64,000 nt of DNA, taken from Patescibacteria group bacterium (lineage in GTDB: Bacteria; Patescibacteriota; Patescibacteriia; UBA2196). The stretch covers positions 55,868-119,867 of the forward strand of contig DAIUDD010000002.1 in the NCBI GenBank assembly GCA_036845805.1, written 5' to 3'. The first letter of the stretch is position 1, and each line of letters opens with the position of its first letter. The notes beneath the pieces were generated by a model that searched no databases, had not been told where the DNA came from, and was given only the letters and a program-made list of their open reading frames with translations. Shown here piece after piece: positions 17,153 to 60,773 of this stretch. A program made the position numbers and the translations under genes.

Positions 17153-17208
17153 TATATATAGTGTGTCATTCCAGCGAAAGCTGGATCCAGAAAAAACAAA
17201 AATAAAAA

Positions 17209-18005: not shown

Positions 18006-18095
18006 ATGTAAACCTCCAAACTTATTTATCTTGTCTAAATAGCCATTTTCTTGTATGCTTACAATACTATTTTTAACAAAATAAATCAAGAAGCA

Positions 18096-19082
18096 ATGAA
18101 CAACGCGCGAAAAAAAAATAAAAAAATAATCTTGGCATTGGCACCAATTGCTGGTTATACCGACAGTGCTTTTCGGGTTCTTTGTTTAGAAAACGGAGCG
18201 GATTTGGTTTACACGGAAATGATTAGCGCGGAAGGTTTAGCCCGCCACAATAAAAAAACATTAGAAATGCTGAATTTTTTACCAGAAGAAAAGCGAGTTG
18301 TGGTGCAACTTTTTGGCAAAAATCCAGAGGCATTTGCAAAGGCCGCGGAAATAATATCAAAGTGTCCGGTGTCAAAGTGTCAAAAAAAAATTTGGGGATT
18401 AGACATTAATCTCGGCTGTCCGGCGCATAAAGTTTTTAAAACCGGTGCCGGCGCGGCACTGATGGATAATAAAAAATTAGCTCGCAAAATTATTGAAGCG
18501 GTTTTGAATAATACCAATTTACCAGTATCCATAAAAATTCGCTCGCGCGTTAAAAACACTACGGCGGAAGAATTTATAAATTATATAAAAGTTTTAGATT
18601 TTAAAATGGTTATGGTACATGGCCGCACACTTTCACAAGGCATGACTGGCGAAATAGATTTTGCCATGATAAAAAAAGTAAAAAATCTATTGCCAGATAA
18701 AATTGTGCTGGGCAATGGCGGTATAGATTCATTAGAAAAATTGCAGGAAATGATTGAAAAAACCGGAGTCGATGGGGTGGGGATTGGCAGAGGCGCTTTG
18801 GGTAGACCAGAAGTGTTTTCTGTTCTCGGGTGTCATCCTTATGAAAATGAGGATCCCCTAGACAAACAAGATCCCCTTTTTCAAGGGGATGACAAAAAGA
18901 ATATTATCCTCCGCCACGCAAAACTATTTTTACAACAAAATTCCAACTTAATTCCCTTGCGCAAACATTTAGTTCATTATTTTAAAGGACAAAAAAATGC
19001 CTCAGAATGGAGGCAAAAGTTAATTAAAGTAGAAACTTGGGAAGATTTAAATTCTGCGTTAGTCGGCGTTAAGTCTGCATAA
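18096..19082 (+). CDS. tRNA-dihydrouridine synthase (Dus family) carrying two in-frame repeat insertions
   Basis: LAPIAGYTDSAFR...VVQLFG...GLDINLGCPAHKV are Dus motifs; the repeat at 18361-18385 encodes KCPVSKCQKK and the palindromic element at 18829-18897 encodes LGCHPYENEDPLDKQDPLFQGDDKK. Confidence 0.85.
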   Translation: MNNARKKNKKIILALAPIAGYTDSAFRVLCLENGADLVYTEMISAEGLARHNKKTLEMLNFLPEEKRVVVQLFGKNPEAFAKAAEIISKCPVSKCQKKIWGLDINLGCPAHKVFKTGAGAALMDNKKLARKIIEAVLNNTNLPVSIKIRSRVKNTTAEEFINYIKVLDFKMVMVHGRTLSQGMTGEIDFAMIKKVKNLLPDKIVLGNGGIDSLEKLQEMIEKTGVDGVGIGRGALGRPEVFSVLGCHPYENEDPLDKQDPLFQGDDKKNIILRHAKLFLQQNSNLIPLRKHLVHYFKGQKNASEWRQKLIKVETWEDLNSALVGVKSA

Positions 19083-22130: not shown

Positions 22131-22241
22131 AAAATAACATTAAAATTGTCATCCTGAACTTGTTTCAGGATCTCTCTATATAAAATTTTTTTTAAAATAA
22201 TGAGATGCCGAAATAAATTCGGCATGACAAAACATATAGTA

Positions 22242-25208: not shown

Positions 25209-25724
25209 TTATTTTACTACGACCATGGCTGGCACAATGACTCGGCCGTGTAATTTATAGCCATCGCTTAAAACTTTGACTATTTTATTTTCCATTTCTA
25301 TTGCTTTCTTAGTTTGGTTGTCGTCATCGTCTGGGTTTAGCTGTGTTTCATCCGTGTTTTCTACCGCTTCGTGTAATTCCGGGTTAAATTCTTCACCCAC
25401 TTGCGGCACGATTTCTTCCAAACCATTATCTTTTAAGACTCTGGCAAACTGATTTTTAATATTTTCAATTCCTTTAACCCAATTATTATCTTTTAAGCTA
25501 TCGGGGATGAAATTTAAAGAAGTTTTTAAATGATTATAAATAGGCAAAAGTTCAACGATAAAATTTAAAGTGGCAAATTTGGCAAAATCTTGTTTTTCAC
25601 GCGTGGTTTGTTTTTTTAAATTTTCATAATCAGCCAAAGCCCGCTTCCAGCCGTTTAAATTTTCCTCAGATTGAGCTTGTAATTTAGTTATTTCTTCGTG
25701 TTGAGGTTCATGTTTTGTATGCAT
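25209..25724 (-). CDS. grpE: Nucleotide exchange factor GrpE
   Basis: RALADYENLKKQTTREKQD ... GYKLHGRVIVPAMVVV; start placed at MHTKHE because the longer ORF runs into a repeat element. Confidence 0.85.
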   Translation of the reverse strand: MHTKHEPQHEEITKLQAQSEENLNGWKRALADYENLKKQTTREKQDFAKFATLNFIVELLPIYNHLKTSLNFIPDSLKDNNWVKGIENIKNQFARVLKDNGLEEIVPQVGEEFNPELHEAVENTDETQLNPDDDDNQTKKAIEMENKIVKVLSDGYKLHGRVIVPAMVVVK

Positions 25725-25738
25725 ATTTTTTTTAGAGA

Positions 25739-25841
25739 ATGTCATTCTGAGGAGCAAAGCGACGAAGAATCCCATATTATCCATGACTGACGGGCTTCCC
25801 TCGTCCCCCACTAGGTTTAGTGGGGGAATCGGAATGACATT
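25739..25841. mobile_element. Family-1 MITE-like palindromic element with terminal inverted repeats aatgtcattc / gaatgacatt, between hrcA and grpE
   Basis: About 103 bp; perfect 10-bp TIRs; internal hairpin cccccactaggtttagtggggg; the hrcA stop codon lies in the right TIR. Confidence 0.65.
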
Positions 25842-26529
25842 ATTTTAAGATATTCTTTACAAAATTTATTAATTCGACATTTTTTTGATAATTCATGCGC
25901 ATCGGACCAATAATGCCTAAGAGCACATTTTTTATTTTAATCATGACCGCGGAGCAGTCGCTTGAAAAATTATTGTCACGGCCGATTTTAATCACAGTTT
26001 CTTCTCTAACTTCTTCATAAACCCTTTTCATTACCTCATCCAAATGATCAATGACTGCAGAAAAATTACAAACCAGATCTACGTTATTAAATTCCGGCTG
26101 GGAAAAAAGATTAGCGAGCCCGGTATAATAGGAATCACCTGGCCCGAAACCAATAAAAACACCAAGTTCTGATTTTTCCGCTAAAATTTTGGCTAAATTT
26201 TTAATCTTTTGTGCTGAATCTTTAATGTCTTTAAAATTTTGAATATCTTTAATTAGTTGTTCTTTTTCCTTACCACTTAATTCGCTTTTTAAATCAATTT
26301 GTTCCGTCACATATTTTTTATAACCATATTCGGTGGGCACCCGGCCAGCAGAAATATGCGGCTGGAAAATATATCCAGCTTCTTCCAACTCCATCATATC
26401 GTTTCTAACAGTAGCCGAGGAAACGTCAATTTTATATTTGTCCACGATTAATTTAGACCCGACTGGTTCAGCTGTACGGATATATTCATCAATAATATTT
26501 TTAAATAATTCTTTTTGACGAGGGTGCAT
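25840..26529 (-). CDS. hrcA: Heat-inducible transcription repressor HrcA
   Basis: N-terminal winged helix (RTAEPVGSKLIV...VSSATVRNDM), typical length; a CIRCE operator lies upstream. Confidence 0.85.
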   Translation of the reverse strand: MHPRQKELFKNIIDEYIRTAEPVGSKLIVDKYKIDVSSATVRNDMMELEEAGYIFQPHISAGRVPTEYGYKKYVTEQIDLKSELSGKEKEQLIKDIQNFKDIKDSAQKIKNLAKILAEKSELGVFIGFGPGDSYYTGLANLFSQPEFNNVDLVCNFSAVIDHLDEVMKRVYEEVREETVIKIGRDNNFSSDCSAVMIKIKNVLLGIIGPMRMNYQKNVELINFVKNILK

Positions 26530-27490: not shown

Positions 27491-27652
27491 AATTGTCATC
27501 CTGAACTTGATTTAGGATCTCCCAGAATAAGTTTGTCTCAGAGTAAGGGGGTGCTAAAATAAATTCAGTATAAAAATATAAATAAAAATGGACAGGTCGC
27601 GACCTGTCCCTACATCACACTTCATTATTCTCTGTTTATTACTTTTTTGCCA

Positions 27653-27690
27653 CCCTTAATTTCCAATTTCTTAATTTCTAGTTTCTATTG
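27653..27690. repeat. Family-6 short repeat, T-rich orientation
   Basis: Reverse complement reads caatagaaactagaaattaagaaattggaaattaaggg; overlaps the rnhA stop codon. Confidence 0.55.
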
Positions 27691-28091
27691 TCAATCGCCT
27701 CATTTACCAGCTTATCTGCCAGTTTATTTTGTTCGCGAGGAACATGTTTAAAAATTATCTTTTTAAAACTTTGGCGTAAATTAAAAATTTTAATAAAACT
27801 ATCTTGAAAATCAGGATTTTTTAATTTATATTGGCCATTAATTTGTTTGCAAACAAGTTCGGAATCCAAGCGCACCTCGACTTCAGTGACGCCAAGTTTT
27901 TTTGCTTCTTCCAAGCCCAAAACCACAGCTTTATATTCTGCTTGATTATTGGTTGTTTCGCCAATATATTTTTTGTGTAGATACAAAGGTTTGGTTAAAT
28001 TTTTGGCATCAAAAATCACCGCGCCAATGCCAGCGGGCCCTGGGTTGTTACGAGCGCCACCGTCAGTATAAATGATAAGTTTTTTATTCAT
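27678..28091 (-). CDS. rnhA: Ribonuclease HI
   Basis: IYTDGGARNNPGPAGIG...NNQAEYKAV...HVPREQNKLADKLVNEA (DEDD catalytic residues in the canonical order). Confidence 0.85.
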   Translation of the reverse strand: MNKKLIIYTDGGARNNPGPAGIGAVIFDAKNLTKPLYLHKKYIGETTNNQAEYKAVVLGLEEAKKLGVTEVEVRLDSELVCKQINGQYKLKNPDFQDSFIKIFNLRQSFKKIIFKHVPREQNKLADKLVNEAIDNRN

Positions 28092-28098
28092 AGTTTGA

Positions 28099-28519
28099 GG
28101 TTGTCATTCCGAGGAGTAAAGCGACGAGGAATCCCGTGTGATTACCAGCACCCCGGTTTTCCAAAATCGCTCCCAAATTAAACTTAAATCATTAAAATTT
28201 GGATTTATTAGTTTAATTAAATTTATCTTCTTTTCCCTTCTCCATCCTTTGATTTCTTTTTCTCGTTTTATAGCTTCAAGCGGTTTATTAAAACATTCAA
28301 AATAAACTAACTTATTAATATTATACCTTTTTGTAAAACCTTCTTTCTTTTTTCTTTCATGCTGTTTATCTCTATTAGGCAGATATCCAGAAATACCAGT
28401 ATAAAAAACAGTGTTTCTTTGATTAGACATGATGTAAGTACAATAATTTTTTGGTCTTTTGATTCTCATATTTGTTATGATAACACGGGATCCTTCGCTA
28501 ATCGCTCAGGATGACAACC
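28099..28519. mobile_element. Family-1 palindromic element split into two halves by a GIY-YIG nuclease gene
   Basis: Left half ggttgtcattccgaggagtaaagcgacgaggaatcccgtgtgat (28099-28142) and right half atgataacacgggatccttcgctaatcgctcaggatgacaacc (28476-28519) form a 43-bp imperfect inverted repeat; the 366-bp GIY-YIG ORF lies exactly between them. Confidence 0.5.
28104..28469 (-). CDS. GIY-YIG nuclease family protein (YhbQ/COG2827-like)
   Basis: YIMSNQRNTVFYTGISGYLPNRDKQHE...LVYFECFNKPLEAIKREKEIKGWRREKKINLI matches the GIY-YIG motifs; the last 15 codons and the stop are encoded by the repeat half. Confidence 0.8.
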   Translation of the reverse strand: MRIKRPKNYCTYIMSNQRNTVFYTGISGYLPNRDKQHERKKKEGFTKRYNINKLVYFECFNKPLEAIKREKEIKGWRREKKINLIKLINPNFNDLSLIWERFWKTGVLVITRDSSSLYSSE

Positions 28520-30259
28520 TTTAAAGTCTATGACCTTCAACTGCAGTTCGCGCGAACCATTCCACTCATTTACTCCTAATTCTAAAACCGCATCGATAAT
28601 ATCGCCAACTTTTATTTGACTCCCCCATTCAAGAGCAGTACCAAAAGAAATCGCCTTGCGTATTAAATTGTTTTGTTTCAACTGAAAACGCAAATGTTTG
28701 CCCTCCTTGCCAACAGTTGTCATGTCCACAATTTCTAGATTTTTAACTAAAAATAAAGGTGCTGGATTGGCCTCGGCAAAAGGTTCAAATTTTTTTAAAT
28801 CATCAATCAATTGCCAATCCAAATCTTTTAAATTAACCTCGGCATCAATTTCTAAAGTCGGTATTAACTCGACATCTTTTAATTTTTCACTAGCTAATTT
28901 TTTAATTTTTTCAACAAATTTTTGATAATTAGCCTCCCCTTTTATGCCCAAACCGCAAGCTTGGCTATGCCCGCCAAAACGTTCTAAAAATTCAGAGCAC
29001 TGCCCCAAAGCTTCGGTAATATTAAATTCTTTAATGCTTCTGCCCGAGCCAGCCATAATGCCATTATTTAAAGTAAATAAAATTATTGGCCGATTGTATT
29101 TATCTTTTAATTTACCCGCTACCAAACCTAAAAGTCCGTGCAACCAATTTTTATTAAAAATAATTATAATTTTTTCTTTATCATCAAGTGTTTTCAGGCT
29201 TTCCTCAACTTCCATTAGCATTTGCTCGGCAATTTTTTGTCGTTCCAAATTTTTTTCCTGAATATCGCGAGCCAAAGCAATGGCTTCCAATTCGTCTTCA
29301 GTAGTCAGCAAATTATAGGCCAAATTAGCATGGTCAATTCGGCCAGCGGCATTAATTCTTGGCACTAATTGAAAACTAATATTTCTCACATCTAAATCAT
29401 ATAATATAGAGCCGAGCGGCAAATCTTTTAATTCGTCGCCATTGGATAAACTACTCACGCGAATAAGTTCTTGCAAGCCCTTGCGCGGAGTTTTATTTAA
29501 AACCTTTAAACCATAAGATACCAGGGTTCTATTTTCGCCCAAAATTGGCGACACATCGCCGATGGTGCCAATAGCTACCAGATCTAAAAGCCATTTTTCA
29601 AAAGCCAAATATTGTTCTGGATTTTCTGCTGATAAAAATAAGGCTTGAGATAATTTATAAGCCACTCCAACGCCAGCCAGTTTTTTAAATGGATATGGCT
29701 CATTTTGCAAAGAACAATCTAAAATAGCTAAAGCTTCTGGTAATTTTTCTCCGGCCAAATGATGGTCAGTAATAATAGTATCAATTTTATTTTTTTTAAG
29801 TTCAGCTATAGCTTCCAAATTGGTAATGCCACAATCAACAGTGATAACTAAATCTATTTTATCAGCGATTATTTTTTGTACAACTAAATTATTCAGACCA
29901 TAACCTTCAATATCGCGGTGGGGAATATAAATAGCAACATATTTTGCGCCAAGTTTTTTTAAACTTTTTTCTACCACTACTGTAGCTATTACTCCATCTG
30001 CATCATAATCGCCATAAATTAAAATTTTTTCCTGCTTGGCAATAGCCTGCTTAATTCTTTCCACTGCAATTTTCATATCTTTAAATAAAAATGGATCATG
30101 CAAATCTTGGGTAAAATCTGGTTTAAAAAATTCTTCAATTTTTTCCTCTGTGTCTAAACCACGATCATAAAGCAATTGCAAAATAATCCCGCCATAAGCG
30201 GGAAATTTTTTTTGCCAGTCAGAAGGCACTGGTTTTTTGATTAGCCATTTTTGAGGCAT
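28475..30259 (-). CDS. recJ: Single-stranded-DNA-specific exonuclease RecJ
   Basis: DHH motifs (ILIYGDYDADGV, ITVDCG, ITDHH) and DHHA1; the C-terminal 14 aa GCHPERLAKDPVLS and the stop codon are encoded by the right half of the palindromic element. Confidence 0.85.
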   Translation of the reverse strand: MPQKWLIKKPVPSDWQKKFPAYGGIILQLLYDRGLDTEEKIEEFFKPDFTQDLHDPFLFKDMKIAVERIKQAIAKQEKILIYGDYDADGVIATVVVEKSLKKLGAKYVAIYIPHRDIEGYGLNNLVVQKIIADKIDLVITVDCGITNLEAIAELKKNKIDTIITDHHLAGEKLPEALAILDCSLQNEPYPFKKLAGVGVAYKLSQALFLSAENPEQYLAFEKWLLDLVAIGTIGDVSPILGENRTLVSYGLKVLNKTPRKGLQELIRVSSLSNGDELKDLPLGSILYDLDVRNISFQLVPRINAAGRIDHANLAYNLLTTEDELEAIALARDIQEKNLERQKIAEQMLMEVEESLKTLDDKEKIIIIFNKNWLHGLLGLVAGKLKDKYNRPIILFTLNNGIMAGSGRSIKEFNITEALGQCSEFLERFGGHSQACGLGIKGEANYQKFVEKIKKLASEKLKDVELIPTLEIDAEVNLKDLDWQLIDDLKKFEPFAEANPAPLFLVKNLEIVDMTTVGKEGKHLRFQLKQNNLIRKAISFGTALEWGSQIKVGDIIDAVLELGVNEWNGSRELQLKVIDFKGCHPERLAKDPVLS

Positions 30260-34758: not shown

Positions 34759-34852
34759 AATTGTCATCCTGAACGATTAGTGAAGGATCTCATTTAAATT
34801 CTTCGCTGAGTTTCGATCACGAGTACTCGGAACTCCACTAAGAATGACAATA
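34759..34852. mobile_element. Family-1 MITE-like element (TIRs aattgtcatcc / gaatgacaat)
   Basis: About 94 bp with 10-bp terminal inverted repeats. Confidence 0.6.
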
Positions 34853-42133: not shown

Positions 42134-42172
42134 ACGGGATTCCTCGTCGCTTCACTCCTCGGAATGACAACC
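42134..42172. repeat. Family-1 palindromic element half-site that supplies the gatB start codon
   Basis: acgggattcctcgtcgcttcactcctcggaATGACAACC; the ATG of gatB is the atg of ggaatgaca. Confidence 0.55.
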
Positions 42173-43750: not shown

Positions 43751-44719
43751 TTATTTTAAAAAAAGATTAACCAATTTTTCCGCTGAATCATAATTTTTTA
43801 CCCACTTAATTCTTTTATCTCTTTTAAACCAAGTCAACTGGCGTTTGGCAAATTGATGAATGGCAATTTTTAATAATTTAATCATTTCTTCTTTGGGATA
43901 CTGACCGCGCAAATAGCGAGAAATATAGCGATATTCCAAACCAAAATCATCCAACCGCTGCCAACTGACTCCTTTTTGGTGTAACAGTTCTATTTCTTTA
44001 ATCATCCCCTCTCTCAGACGCTCATCAACCCGCTGGTCTATTCTTTGATTAATAATTTCACGGGGAAATTTAATGCCAATAATAAGCGGATTAAAAAGCG
44101 GGTTTTTTTTCTGCCGCAAAGCAGAAAACTTGTGTCCAGATAAACAAACCTCAAGTGCGCGGTCTAGACGTCGTGGGTTTTTAGTATCTACAAATTCTAA
44201 AGCGGCTGGATCTAATTTTTTTAATAATTTTATTTTTTCCAAAGTTTCCATTTTTTCGATTTTTTTTCTCAATTTTATGTTGGGCTTAACAGCGGGAATA
44301 TTATAATTATCAATCAAAGCGGAAAGATAAAGGCCGGTACCGCCAACCACGATGGGCAATTTACCACGCGCGATGACATTATTAATGGCTTTTAGTGCTA
44401 ATTTTTTATATTTAGCGACATTAAATTTTTGATTCGGATTAACCACATCAATTAGATGATAAGGGACAAAAGAATTGTCATTCCGGACTTGATCCGGAAT
44501 CCACTTATTTTTATTTCTGGATCCCAGCTTTCGCTGGGATGACAAACTATATTCGCTCAAATCTTTGCCAGTGCCAAGATCCATGCCGCGATAAACTTGT
44601 CTCGAGTCAACAGAAATAATTTCGCCATTAAATTTGGCAGCTAATTTGACAGCTAATTTTGTTTTACCAGTAGCTGTGGGACCGAGAATAACAATGATTT
44701 TTGGTTTTAATATTGACAT
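43751..44719 (-). CDS. miaA: tRNA dimethylallyltransferase with an in-frame palindromic-element insertion
   Basis: P-loop GPTATGKT, ISVDSRQVYRGMDLGTGK; the element at 44475-44546 adds about 27 aa (LSEYSLSSQRKLGSRNKNKWIPDQVRNDNSF) between the GTGK and HLID motifs. Confidence 0.85.
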   Translation of the reverse strand: MSILKPKIIVILGPTATGKTKLAVKLAAKFNGEIISVDSRQVYRGMDLGTGKDLSEYSLSSQRKLGSRNKNKWIPDQVRNDNSFVPYHLIDVVNPNQKFNVAKYKKLALKAINNVIARGKLPIVVGGTGLYLSALIDNYNIPAVKPNIKLRKKIEKMETLEKIKLLKKLDPAALEFVDTKNPRRLDRALEVCLSGHKFSALRQKKNPLFNPLIIGIKFPREIINQRIDQRVDERLREGMIKEIELLHQKGVSWQRLDDFGLEYRYISRYLRGQYPKEEMIKLLKIAIHQFAKRQLTWFKRDKRIKWVKNYDSAEKLVNLFLK

Positions 44720-58482: not shown

Positions 58483-60057
58483 CTAATTATTTGGCAAGGG
58501 TTGGTATTGGAAGATAAAAATTAAAACAATAAAGCCAATGCCCAAAGGATGATTTAAATAGGGGGTAAAGATATTAACGGCGAGTAAGGCCACTAAGGCG
58601 ATGCCAAATGAATAATGAATTATGAATAATGAATTATGGTTTTTTTGATTTAAGTTTGAAAAATTAGAATTTGTTTCGAATTTTAATAACTTTTTTATAA
58701 TTAAAAAAAATAAATATAAATAAATGCCTAATCCAACTAGCCCAAATTTAAGGATCATATCCAAATAGCCCCACTCAGAAGCATAAGTAGTCACTTCGCC
58801 GCTTTGGCCAGCAGTTTCATTAATTAAGCGCGGGTCAGTGCTAAAATAAGTAAAAGTGGCGCCAAAGCCAGAACCAATTAGAGGGTGTTTTTTTATACCT
58901 TGCCATAAGGGTGTTAATTGATTCAGGCGGGCAGCCGAGGCAGCTTCACCTTGAGTTAAACGTTGGCCTAAAATACTAGCCCAGTCCCCCACTGGTTTTG
59001 GCGGCAAAAAATAAATGGCACTAACCAAAACCAGACTGGCGAATAAAAATAAAATTATTTTTCCAATCTGTTTTAAAATATTAAAAAATTTTTCTTTAGT
59101 GATAATAAAATAAACCAAATAACTAAGCAGGCCGGCGATTAAACCCACCCAGAAACTGCGGGAAAAAGAAATAATTAGCACGGCTAAACAAAAAATTGGC
59201 AATAAAAAATCAATTAAGATTGAATAAATTTTGTGTTCAGTTTTTTTAAATTTTAAACCAACAAACAAAATAAAAAATAAAATTAAAACATAAATTTGCG
59301 CCGGCATAAATATGCGCCAGACATTGCCAGCCACATGAGTAATTTCAGCGACATTGGTATCGCGCACCCATTGATATATTTCCGGCAGAAAAAAAGAAAC
59401 TTGATGAGTAAAAATATAAAATAAAAATATAGTTTTTAAAAAAATAACACTGCCGGCAGCGCATAAAATTGAGATAATGTTTATTATGAATTTGTGTTTA
59501 TTCGTGTTCTTATTGGTGTAGATTAGTGTCATTGGCAGCGCAACTAACCAATACAACCAATTATTAAAATCTAAAAACACATTACCAAAATCATTGCCGC
59601 GAATTATTCCCCAAACAAAGGCCCAGACAACAATGATTGTCATTCCGAGTTCCGCAATTAATGCGGAACGAGGAATCCTGCGGAAAACAGAATTAATTTT
59701 GTATAATGTTTTGCTTTGTTTTTCACGGGATCCTTCGTCGTTAACACTCCTCAGGATGACATTTACTAAAAACACTGCCATCACCACTATAAAAATTCCC
59801 ATCCTTATAGATAAAACCGTGTTACCTAAATCTACCGAAAACAGATATCCTTTAGAACCAACAAATAATTCTGCTAGTAAAATATAAAGGCCATATTTTA
59901 ATTTGTATAAAGATAAAAAAAGCGTGGCTAAAATTATAGCCACAAAACAAACCGTATTTAGCCAATGATTGGCCCAGCTTAAATATGACAAAATTTCTGC
60001 TAAAATTAGCAAAAAAAATGTAATTTTAAAATATTTTTTACTAATAAAACTTGACAT
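58483..60057 (-). CDS. O-antigen ligase/polymerase-like (Wzy/WaaL family) polytopic membrane protein carrying an in-frame palindromic element
   Basis: More than 10 TM helices and a large periplasmic loop; the element at 59636-59762 encodes VILRSVNDEGSREKQSKTLYKINSVFRRIPRSALIAELGMT. Confidence 0.6.
   Translation of the reverse strand: MSSFISKKYFKITFFLLILAEILSYLSWANHWLNTVCFVAIILATLFLSLYKLKYGLYILLAELFVGSKGYLFSVDLGNTVLSIRMGIFIVVMAVFLVNVILRSVNDEGSREKQSKTLYKINSVFRRIPRSALIAELGMTIIVVWAFVWGIIRGNDFGNVFLDFNNWLYWLVALPMTLIYTNKNTNKHKFIINIISILCAAGSVIFLKTIFLFYIFTHQVSFFLPEIYQWVRDTNVAEITHVAGNVWRIFMPAQIYVLILFFILFVGLKFKKTEHKIYSILIDFLLPIFCLAVLIISFSRSFWVGLIAGLLSYLVYFIITKEKFFNILKQIGKIILFLFASLVLVSAIYFLPPKPVGDWASILGQRLTQGEAASAARLNQLTPLWQGIKKHPLIGSGFGATFTYFSTDPRLINETAGQSGEVTTYASEWGYLDMILKFGLVGLGIYLYLFFLIIKKLLKFETNSNFSNLNQKNHNSLFIIHYSFGIALVALLAVNIFTPYLNHPLGIGFIVLIFIFQYQPLPNN
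59636..59762. mobile_element. Family-1 MITE-like element (TIRs attgtcattccgag / ctcaggatgacat) inserted in-frame in the Wzy-like gene
   Basis: 127 bp with about 13-bp TIRs; preserves the reading frame (42 codons). Confidence 0.65.
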
Positions 60058-60686: not shown

Positions 60687-60773
60687 TTGTCATCCTCGTT
60701 CACCTTTTGTCATCCTCGCGAAAGCGAGGATCTGGGTATTTTTTTGGATTTCCGGTTAGATCGGGAATGACAA
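60687..60773. mobile_element. Family-1 MITE-like element (ttgtcatcctcg ... gggaatgacaa)
   Basis: Duplicated left TIR (ttgtcatcctcg twice) and a gaatgacaa right end. Confidence 0.55.

Follow-up and report, generated by a model that had tools for sequence, protein, structure and literature searches.

We have analysed a locus in a 64,000-nucleotide stretch of the genome of a Patescibacteria group bacterium (GenBank assembly GCA_036845805.1, contig DAIUDD010000002.1, positions 55,868 to 119,867; the whole stretch is here called the window), where a small GIY-YIG nuclease gene, ssn, stands between two inverted repeat arms and is itself placed between recJ and an RNase H gene, rnhA. The locus is very likely an Ssn-family module, in which the endonuclease gene is bracketed by two oppositely oriented hairpin repeats that its product presumably recognises. 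The Ssn family (CDD cd10448) consists of small single-domain GIY-YIG proteins that are site-specific nucleases of single-stranded DNA (ssDNA) (Chenal et al., Nat Commun 2025, PMC11893778). SsnA of Neisseria meningitidis binds the NTS hairpin repeat (CGTCATTCCCGCGMAVGCGGGAATCYRG) as ssDNA only and on that strand only, its cleavage site lying a few nucleotides upstream of the repeat, while double-stranded DNA (dsDNA) and RNA are not acted on (PMC11893778). Binding depends critically on the C that follows the palindrome, and cleavage on the three bases that precede it; the identity of the loop can be dispensed with, and mutating Y6, Y17 or E64 of the enzyme abolishes cleavage (PMC11893778). Most Ssn homologs are flanked by related "SRM" hairpins, the association being reported as 71%/42% (PMC11893778).

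On sequence criteria, the window nuclease is a member of the Ssn family. Its sole Pfam domain is PF01541 (GIY-YIG; residues 8-83, E 8e-13), and it aligns with the SsnA ortholog of N. gonorrhoeae (94 amino acid residues, aa) at 41% identity over 87 aa (residues 3-89; pairwise E 2e-21). Residues Y12, Y23 and E70 align to Y6, Y17 and E64 of SsnA, and Y23, R33, H37, E70 and N89 are invariant among 26 homologs. The protein is thus a single-domain one shorter than 150 aa, matches SsnA well within the published threshold of E < 1e-10 and retains the essential residues. A tblastn search of a 7.3-Gb database with the window protein found the gonococcal match (E 4e-12) at one place per genome. Homologs of the window protein number in the hundreds, are about 93-105 aa long, and several of them carry other repeat-like tails. 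No match to the nuclease was found in NCBIfam, PHROGs or PADLOC. The protein had been labelled YhbQ-like in the initial annotation, and the UPF0213/YhbQ structures PDB 1ZG2 and 1YWL are only weakly similar to it (profile E 2.4e-7). While sharing the fold class and a similar size with the window protein, UPF0213/YhbQ proteins are far more distant than SsnA (33.7 bits by profile vs 68.6 bits pairwise) and lack the signature GFTxRYN..LVY.E...AIxREKxxKxW common to the window protein and SsnA. From these structures SsnA is just as distant.

The reference for these comparisons was the N. gonorrhoeae locus at NZ_CP119142.1 1880213-1883473 (L090), taken as the SsnA ortholog on the basis of its 94-aa product, the positions of Y6, Y17 and E64, which are as published, and the canonical NTS copies around it. 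NZ_CP119142.1 and NZ_CP119140.1, with one match each, are listed in PLSDB as "plasmid" records and are actually 2.17-Mb N. gonorrhoeae chromosomes. The gonococcal reading frame has ATT where Met1 is expected and an out-of-frame ATG 3 nt downstream, so that this gene may use a non-canonical start or be impaired.

We place the start of the window gene at the ATG at 28469, because the alignment with homologs begins at residue 7; in the public gene call (P0001, 108 aa) the protein begins at Met14 and would lose the catalytic Tyr12. At the other end, residues 96-121 correspond to spacer or repeat read-through and are absent from most homologs. The gene call of one relative (P0002, 139 aa) is over-extended into its upstream repeat.

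The initial annotation had noticed the two inverted arms around the gene, and a repeat finder recovers them as two blocks, 28098-28113 with 28505-28520 (16 nt, 88% complementary) and 28125-28142 with 28480-28497 (18 nt, 83% complementary); the inverted repeat extends to AGGTTGTCAT on both sides. It had taken the arms for halves of a single palindrome, into the exact centre of which the nuclease gene had been inserted, and in this it was mistaken: the arms are two complete, self-complementary hairpin units. The left arm, downstream of ssn, reads GGTTGTC-ATTCC-GAGGAG-TAAAG-CGACGA-GGAAT-CCCGTG, with the stem ATTCC/GGAAT around an inner part of (GAG)2-TAAAG-(CGA)2. The right arm, upstream of ssn, reads GGTTGTC-ATCCT-GAGCGATTAGCGA-AGGAT-CCCGTGT on its own tagged strand and has the stem ATCCT/AGGAT around a short inner part; in its fold a 5-bp stem is followed by a G.A/A.G step and then by an inner stem, and it is of the same sub-type as a unit at 34763. 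In both arms a 5-bp basal stem is followed by G.A steps, and the inner segments are 9 and 13 nt long. The stem types differ (TCC/GGA in the left arm vs CCT/AGG in the right), and the differences between the arms fall exactly where bases pair within each unit; therefore, each arm is self-contained.

Genes are packed so tightly here that the units overlap coding sequence. The reverse complement of the left arm codes for ...ITRDSSSLYSSE and the TGA stop of ssn, this TGA being supplied by ATGAC, the complement of the tag. The right arm codes for the last 14 codons of recJ (GCHPERLAKDPVLS) and its TAA stop at 28475-28477; the OB domain of RecJ ends at residue 578, and the final 14 residues derive from the repeat. 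Both of these coding assignments had been made in the initial annotation, and reading of the sequence bears them out. The left arm is identical at 37 of 38 positions to a solo unit at 42138-42168, and the tail peptide of the nuclease recurs at 42135-42164.

That the arms belong to a repeat family, as had been proposed, is clear from the counts in the window. The motif GTTGTCATYCYGAG has 12 matches vs 0.54 expected, and a structural scan that demanded GTCAT, a perfect 5-bp basal stem and a trailing C found 19 units (about 20 overall) vs 1.6 +/- 1.3 in dinucleotide shuffles. An earlier scan for stems of at least 7 bp with no more than one mismatch was too strict and missed both arms. A unit is 25-50 nt long and has the form TTGTC-AT-NNN-...-N'N'N'-AT-C, the AT that starts the stem standing directly after an unpaired TGTC tag and the AT that ends it directly before a C; TTGTC-AT...AT-C is present in all window units. 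There is about one unit per 3 kb, mostly at gene boundaries.

The association of gene and repeat holds far beyond the window. We examined 80 loci of relatives from many phyla, including Acidobacteriota, Elusimicrobia, Patescibacteria, Cyanobacteria, Chloroflexota, Omnitrophota and others. The density of units is 7.5-8.2 per kb in the 150 bp next to the gene and about 0.2 per kb beyond 1.5 kb, which is an enrichment of about 35-fold. A unit is present on at least one side of the gene in 72 of the 80 loci and on both sides in 54. Upstream of the gene, the nearest unit is in "+" orientation in 43 of 64 cases; downstream, it is in "-" orientation in 52 of 65. The resulting (+,-) layout with tags outward, as in the window, is the commonest (35/80 loci), and is therefore a property of the family rather than a one-off insertion into a palindrome centre. 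The consensus of the relatives' units is GTC-AT-NNN-GA-(G...C)-GA-N'N'N'-AT-C. When units were detected by the fixed anchors alone, with no demand for complementarity, the NNN triplets were perfectly complementary in 170 of 201 units vs about 3 expected, and 12 triplet types were represented. Of 182 units close to the gene, 172 carry the 5' G-A step and 149 a purine-purine step on both sides; the inner segments have a median length of 15 nt and reach 51 nt.

Both arms carry the hallmarks of the NTS, namely a GTC tag, a palindrome that starts with AT, a trailing C and multiple copies in the genome. The bracketing of ssn by oriented hairpin repeats of this kind, with many genomic copies, is the arrangement known from Neisseria, and a functional link between nuclease and repeat, which had been suspected from the start, is supported by the assignment to the Ssn family, whose enzymes have been shown biochemically to bind such hairpins and to cut beside them (PMC11893778). 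The flanking repeats of the window differ from those of Neisseria in their G.A/A.G purine step and in the length of their inner segments (9-13 nt), and the host, an uncultivated relative of Patescibacteria, has a small genome.

Several observations weigh against this interpretation. In nearest-neighbour DNA folding the arm hairpins do not come out as stable (-1.3 and -3.6 kcal/mol, z +1.1 and -1.0), as against z -4.2 to -4.8 for members of the family with perfect stems; because of this, the hairpin reading of the arms rests on covariation and not on energy. The units nearest to the gene point outward in the window and inward in Neisseria; the NTS copies of the gonococcal locus do include tags-outward dimers. 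The published SRM pattern, HGTCWYN(0-2)YYVSBRHN(0-5)WNVSBRGN(0-2)RNCYNB, matches neither arm and has no match within 150 bp of the gene in the 80 relatives. Our implementation of it recovered 8 SRMs in a 3.2-kb Neisseria locus; the pattern misses the arms because it allows no A at the G.A step and no loop longer than 5 nt. For this reason, a structural definition and the anchor-only covariation test were used instead, and the cognate sites of the enzyme in this clade are assigned by analogy. Likewise, the enzyme's activity in this clade would be that of its characterised homologs.

The repeat itself is a TGTC-tagged repetitive extragenic palindrome (REP) of the CGTC superfamily, the class of Neisseria dRS3/NTS and of Rickettsia RPE-4/6, in a variant that has an AT-start 5-bp basal stem and a conserved G.A/A.G step and whose inner segment is long and varies freely. 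In the CGTC-tagged REP superfamily, of which dRS3 and RPE-4/6 are members, the unpaired terminal tag is CGTC, TGTC or CCTC, with TGTC in many repeats; stems begin with AT and are followed by a 3-bp tail, and dimers predominate. Copies lie inside genes and at ends of open reading frames (ORFs), where they encode 20-30 aa (Di Nocera et al., BMC Genomics 2013, PMC3733652). The window units share with it the unpaired TGTC tag, the complementary AT stem start, a short conserved tail, the dimers and the copies within genes and at ORF ends. Families of the superfamily have 8-9-bp stems and 4-5-nt loops, and no dedicated transposase was known for them in 2013 (PMC3733652). The two arms, in contrast, do not conform to this stem and loop size, to which only some window units conform (44520-44543, with an 8-bp stem and a 4-nt loop, and 22148, with an 8-bp stem and a 5-nt loop), and Patescibacteria-like hosts are not among the five phyla listed (PMC3733652).

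If the window enzyme acts as SsnA does, it would bind the folded hairpin only in ssDNA and only on the GTCAT-tagged strand, and would nick a few nucleotides 5' of the tag, leaving dsDNA and RNA untouched. With the tags outward, the nick sites would lie just outside the module, one per strand. Its cellular role might be to process repeat-bearing ssDNA, such as incoming transforming DNA, which it might restrict, or intermediates of replication and repair, and, by analogy with RAYT/REPIN, it might serve the maintenance or spread of the repeat family. RecJ ends in 14 residues that come from the upstream unit and are not conserved, and the tag complement provides the stop of ssn.

The history of the site argues for long residence. 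The recJ-ssn-rnhA order, with both units in the same places, is found at two related loci, L001 (nuclease 85% identical) and L092 (66%), and the gene order is also present in L002. RecJ is 74% identical between the window and L001 and 61% between the window and L092, which is about 60% identical to the others; the identity to the RecJ of a further relative, L086, is 87% for L001 and 72% for the window. Conservation through such divergence runs against a recent insertion. In the units of L001, L092 and the window, the tags, basal stems and CCCGT tails are kept and the inner segments are entirely different, so the loop behaves as a hypervariable cassette at the orthologous post-recJ units, in line with the published dispensability of loop identity. 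Between the G.A steps, the orthologous units L001:2000-2042, L092:2052-2087 and window 28489-28515 have inner lengths of 9, 25 and 18 nt. In each of the three carriers, the RecJ tail results from another reading frame of the unit (GCHPERLAKDPVLS in the window, GLSSR and MLSSRS), so that it must be seen as a by-product and does not belong to the conserved part of RecJ.

L086 has the RecJ nearest to that of L001 and is the one close RecJ relative that lacks the module. Its RecJ ends in ...VDIKKK, with no unit after recJ and a different downstream gene. A methyltransferase-like ORF starts there 2 nt after recJ (L086:3001-4856), and both the module and the RecJ tail are absent. The same contig carries units elsewhere, at 242, 577, 2128, 2197 and 2532, which indicates loss or rearrangement at the recJ site, the lineage having retained the repeat family. 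Since L086 is nested among carriers, recJ-ssn-rnhA with its units is ancestral for the clade. We did not accept L086 as a clean empty site: with a different downstream gene, it shows the absence of the RecJ tail and not a precise junction. Judging from these sequence comparisons, the module is an inherited resident of recJ-ssn-rnhA and not a fresh insertion.

Over longer times, the ssn gene or the whole module does relocate. Nuclease relatives of 58-67% identity stand in other contexts, between NifU_N and NifU genes (L091) and between genes for dihydrofolate reductase and a glycosyltransferase (L093). In the former (L091:280-656, nuclease 67% identical) a unit-ssn-unit block is wedged between the two genes, and its upstream unit provides the final codons and stop of the NifU_N ORF (…MSS*). 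A split nifU gene was rejected as evidence of insertion at this locus, NifU_N and NifU being often separate genes.

The features of the window are collected in Table 1. Six unit pairs are found in it, all with tags outward like the arms around ssn. The initial annotation would have been refuted by a lack of intact, uninterrupted copies elsewhere; gene-less outward doublets do exist, at five sites, and it is not refuted on this count. The window MiaA can be aligned with solved MiaA proteins over its residues 4-56 and 83-309, and between these blocks they have 2 residues against its 26, so that, compared with the solved structures, the MiaA doublet is a clean insertion. In the Dus alignment, the 21-aa doublet stretch falls in a poorly aligned linker and is a less clear case of insertion. 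The doublet at 59639-59760 pairs both stem types of the ssn arms (TCC/GGA and CCT/AGG). The doublets behave as discrete insertable entities; their spacers have no similarity to the ends of the ssn gene beyond the units themselves, and no target-site duplication is discernible at the ssn module or the doublets beyond an inverted TT...AA that belongs to the repeat. The in-frame doublets in the miaA, dus and Wzy_C ORFs resemble Rickettsia palindromic elements.

Table 1. Coordinates of the ssn module, its neighbouring genes and other repeat units in the window.
Feature	Coordinates	Strand	Description
ssn gene	28104-28469	-	366-nt ORF, 121 aa; single-domain GIY-YIG nuclease, Ssn family by sequence
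Left arm (downstream of ssn)	28099-28142	+ (tagged strand)	Complete hairpin unit, core 28103-28133
Right arm (upstream of ssn)	28476-28519	- (tagged strand)	Complete hairpin unit, core 28489-28515
recJ	28475-30259	-	594 aa; Pfam DHH, DHHA1 and RecJ_OB domains; upstream of ssn
RNase H gene (rnhA)	27678-28091	-	Pfam RNase_H / RVT_3; third gene of the recJ-ssn-rnhA block
Terminator-like hairpin and T-run	27590-27609	-	Strong, directly past rnhA
Doublet	18832-18893		Tags outward; in-frame 21-aa stretch in dus ORF (18051-19082)
Doublet	22148-22228		Intergenic, tags outward; two different perfect stems (ATCCTGAA, ATGCCGAA); first unit z -4.3
Doublet	25741-25845		Between grpE ORF (25209-25811) and hrcA-like ORF (25840-26529); second unit with long inner hairpin (TTCCCCCACTAAACCTAGTGGGGGA)
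Doublet	34763-34851		Intergenic, tags outward; first unit of the sub-type of the ssn right arm
Doublet	44477-44543		Tags outward; in-frame 23-aa insert in miaA (ORF 43751-44719)
Doublet	59639-59760		Gene-less, tags outward; in-frame 41-aa insert in Wzy_C-type ORF (58483-60057)
Solo unit	42138-42168	-	ATGAC end overlaps listed gatB ATG (42164)
Strict-SRM unit	17164-17190	+	Perfect stem, GAAA loop
Strict-SRM unit	44517-44544	-	Perfect stem, GAAA loop
Strict-SRM unit	60708-60735	+	Perfect stem, GAAA loop

The doublet at 25741-25845 overlaps both the annotated 5' end of grpE and, at its 3' end, the ORF upstream; as Pfam detects GrpE only from residue 31, the start of the grpE ORF is probably over-called through the repeat. 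In gatB, whose listed ATG at 42164 is supplied by the tag complement of the solo unit, the Pfam GatB_N match begins at residue 10. The published strict SRM pattern has 3 matches in the window vs 0.06 expected, neither ssn arm being among them. These perfect-stem units coexist with the G.A-type long-loop units, and one ssn gene is visible in the window. A search of the whole window at Rfam gathering thresholds returned no family, and literature searches with literal repeat sequences returned unrelated primer matches only.

RAYTs are HUH/Y1 (IS200/IS605-type) tyrosine transposases flanked by GTAG-tagged REPs, and REP doublets are the mobile unit of such RAYT/REPIN systems. The ssn locus is similar to them in that one nuclease gene stands between inverted hairpin repeats, the repeats occur genome-wide as inverted doublets and the enzyme class acts on ssDNA hairpins; it differs in that the enzyme is of the GIY-YIG and not the HUH/Y1 type and the tag is TGTC/CGTC and not GTAG, and mobilisation by Ssn is hypothetical. 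One alternative, which we regard as unlikely, is that unit-ssn-unit is, or recently was, an autonomous element similar to an insertion sequence (IS), with the gene-less doublets as its miniature non-autonomous derivatives and Ssn as the mobilising enzyme, a GIY-YIG analogue of RAYT/REPIN. The layout, with its arms extending to the same sequence on both sides, does resemble terminal inverted repeats, relatives occupy unrelated contexts at 58-67% identity, and doublets lie in frame within conserved genes. However, the module is positionally stable through about 40% RecJ divergence, target-site duplications are indiscernible at module and doublets alike, and the doublet spacers share nothing with the gene ends. 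To our knowledge, GIY-YIG nucleases have no strand-transfer activity. Furthermore, outward tags would leave one cleavable unit per strand in each doublet, and therefore same-strand excision in the manner of IS200/IS605 would not be possible. The initial annotation had offered, as its second option, a repeat that mobilises the nuclease as cargo; this would amount to such an IS- or RAYT-like module, and we give it the same low probability. This hypothesis had already been raised for Ssn, the authors having likened NTS-ssnA-NTS to an IS and to the RAYT/REP relationship (PMC11893778), and CGTC-tagged REPs are otherwise without a known transposase (PMC3733652).

GIY-YIG homing endonucleases of the I-TevI / Seg type have a C-terminal DNA-binding module, reside in introns, inteins or phages and cut dsDNA. 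The first option of the initial annotation, a homing-type endonuclease whose gene targeted a palindromic doublet already present and split it by inserting at its centre, is improbable to a greater degree. It could draw on the gene-less outward doublet that has the same two stem types (59639-59760), on the behaviour of doublets as discrete insertable entities (the clean MiaA insert being one of 23-24 aa) and on the fact that the Ssn nuclease family does recognise such repeats. Yet the window protein is a bare GIY-YIG domain with no second, DNA-binding domain and no match to phage (PHROGs) or defence families, and it is encoded in a cellular operon between recJ and rnhA. The characterised Ssn enzymes, moreover, do not cut dsDNA, which homing needs, and the flanked layout is family-wide across phyla and ancestral at the recJ site. 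The arms are of different sub-types, each being closest to other solo units and not to the other arm. Other GIY-YIG paralogs embedded in palindromes had been suggested as a check, and no second ssn paralog was found within the 64-kb window.

Finally, it is hardly credible that generic REP-like RNA or terminator hairpins have gathered by coincidence in short intergenic gaps: frequent as the units are, and mostly located at gene boundaries, their enrichment and orientation bias recur beside homologous genes in 80 independent loci, the window units have no T-tracts (and so are not terminator-like) and no Rfam match, and SsnA is inactive on RNA.

The gaps are 5 nt between recJ and ssn and 12 nt between ssn and rnhA. 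No terminator was found between recJ, ssn and rnhA, which makes co-transcription of the three probable; the number of promoter-like sites does not rise above background (12 vs 11 +/- 3). The placement between the gene of an ssDNA exonuclease, recJ, and that of an RNase H is suggestive, and is not general across the Ssn family.

A more far-reaching proposal, which we put forward tentatively and hold possible rather than probable, is that doublets with outward tags are able to transpose, the one that carries ssn being their master copy. Ssn would then be the GIY-YIG counterpart of RAYT/REPIN that spreads CGTC/TGTC-tagged REPs, and the enzyme of this clade would recognise a distinct class of hairpins with sheared G.A pairs and expandable loops, outside the SRM definition. 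If the doublet is transposable, this would account for the spread of CGTC/TGTC-REPs, including RPE-like in-frame inserts in Rickettsia, for which no mobilising enzyme has been demonstrated so far. The compact genome of about 0.7 Mb, with doublets in miaA, dus and a wzy-like gene, would in that case be a tractable natural record of insertions.

The finding is modestly new, in that it adds a Patescibacteria-type host and a G.A-mismatch, long-loop repeat variant missed by the published pattern; the basic picture set out for Ssn in 2025 is unchanged. The outward unit-gene-unit arrangement is the commonest layout in this branch of the family. The SRM pattern misses the G.A-step, long-loop type that flanks this branch across many phyla, and the reported association is therefore probably an underestimate. 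For annotation, small GIY-YIG genes between TGTCAT-tagged hairpins can be read as Ssn modules, and odd C-terminal tails on neighbouring proteins (...CHPE..., ...SSLYSSE, ...LSSR) as repeat read-through. For the organism, it means that a bacterium with a reduced genome carries in-frame repeat doublets in conserved genes.

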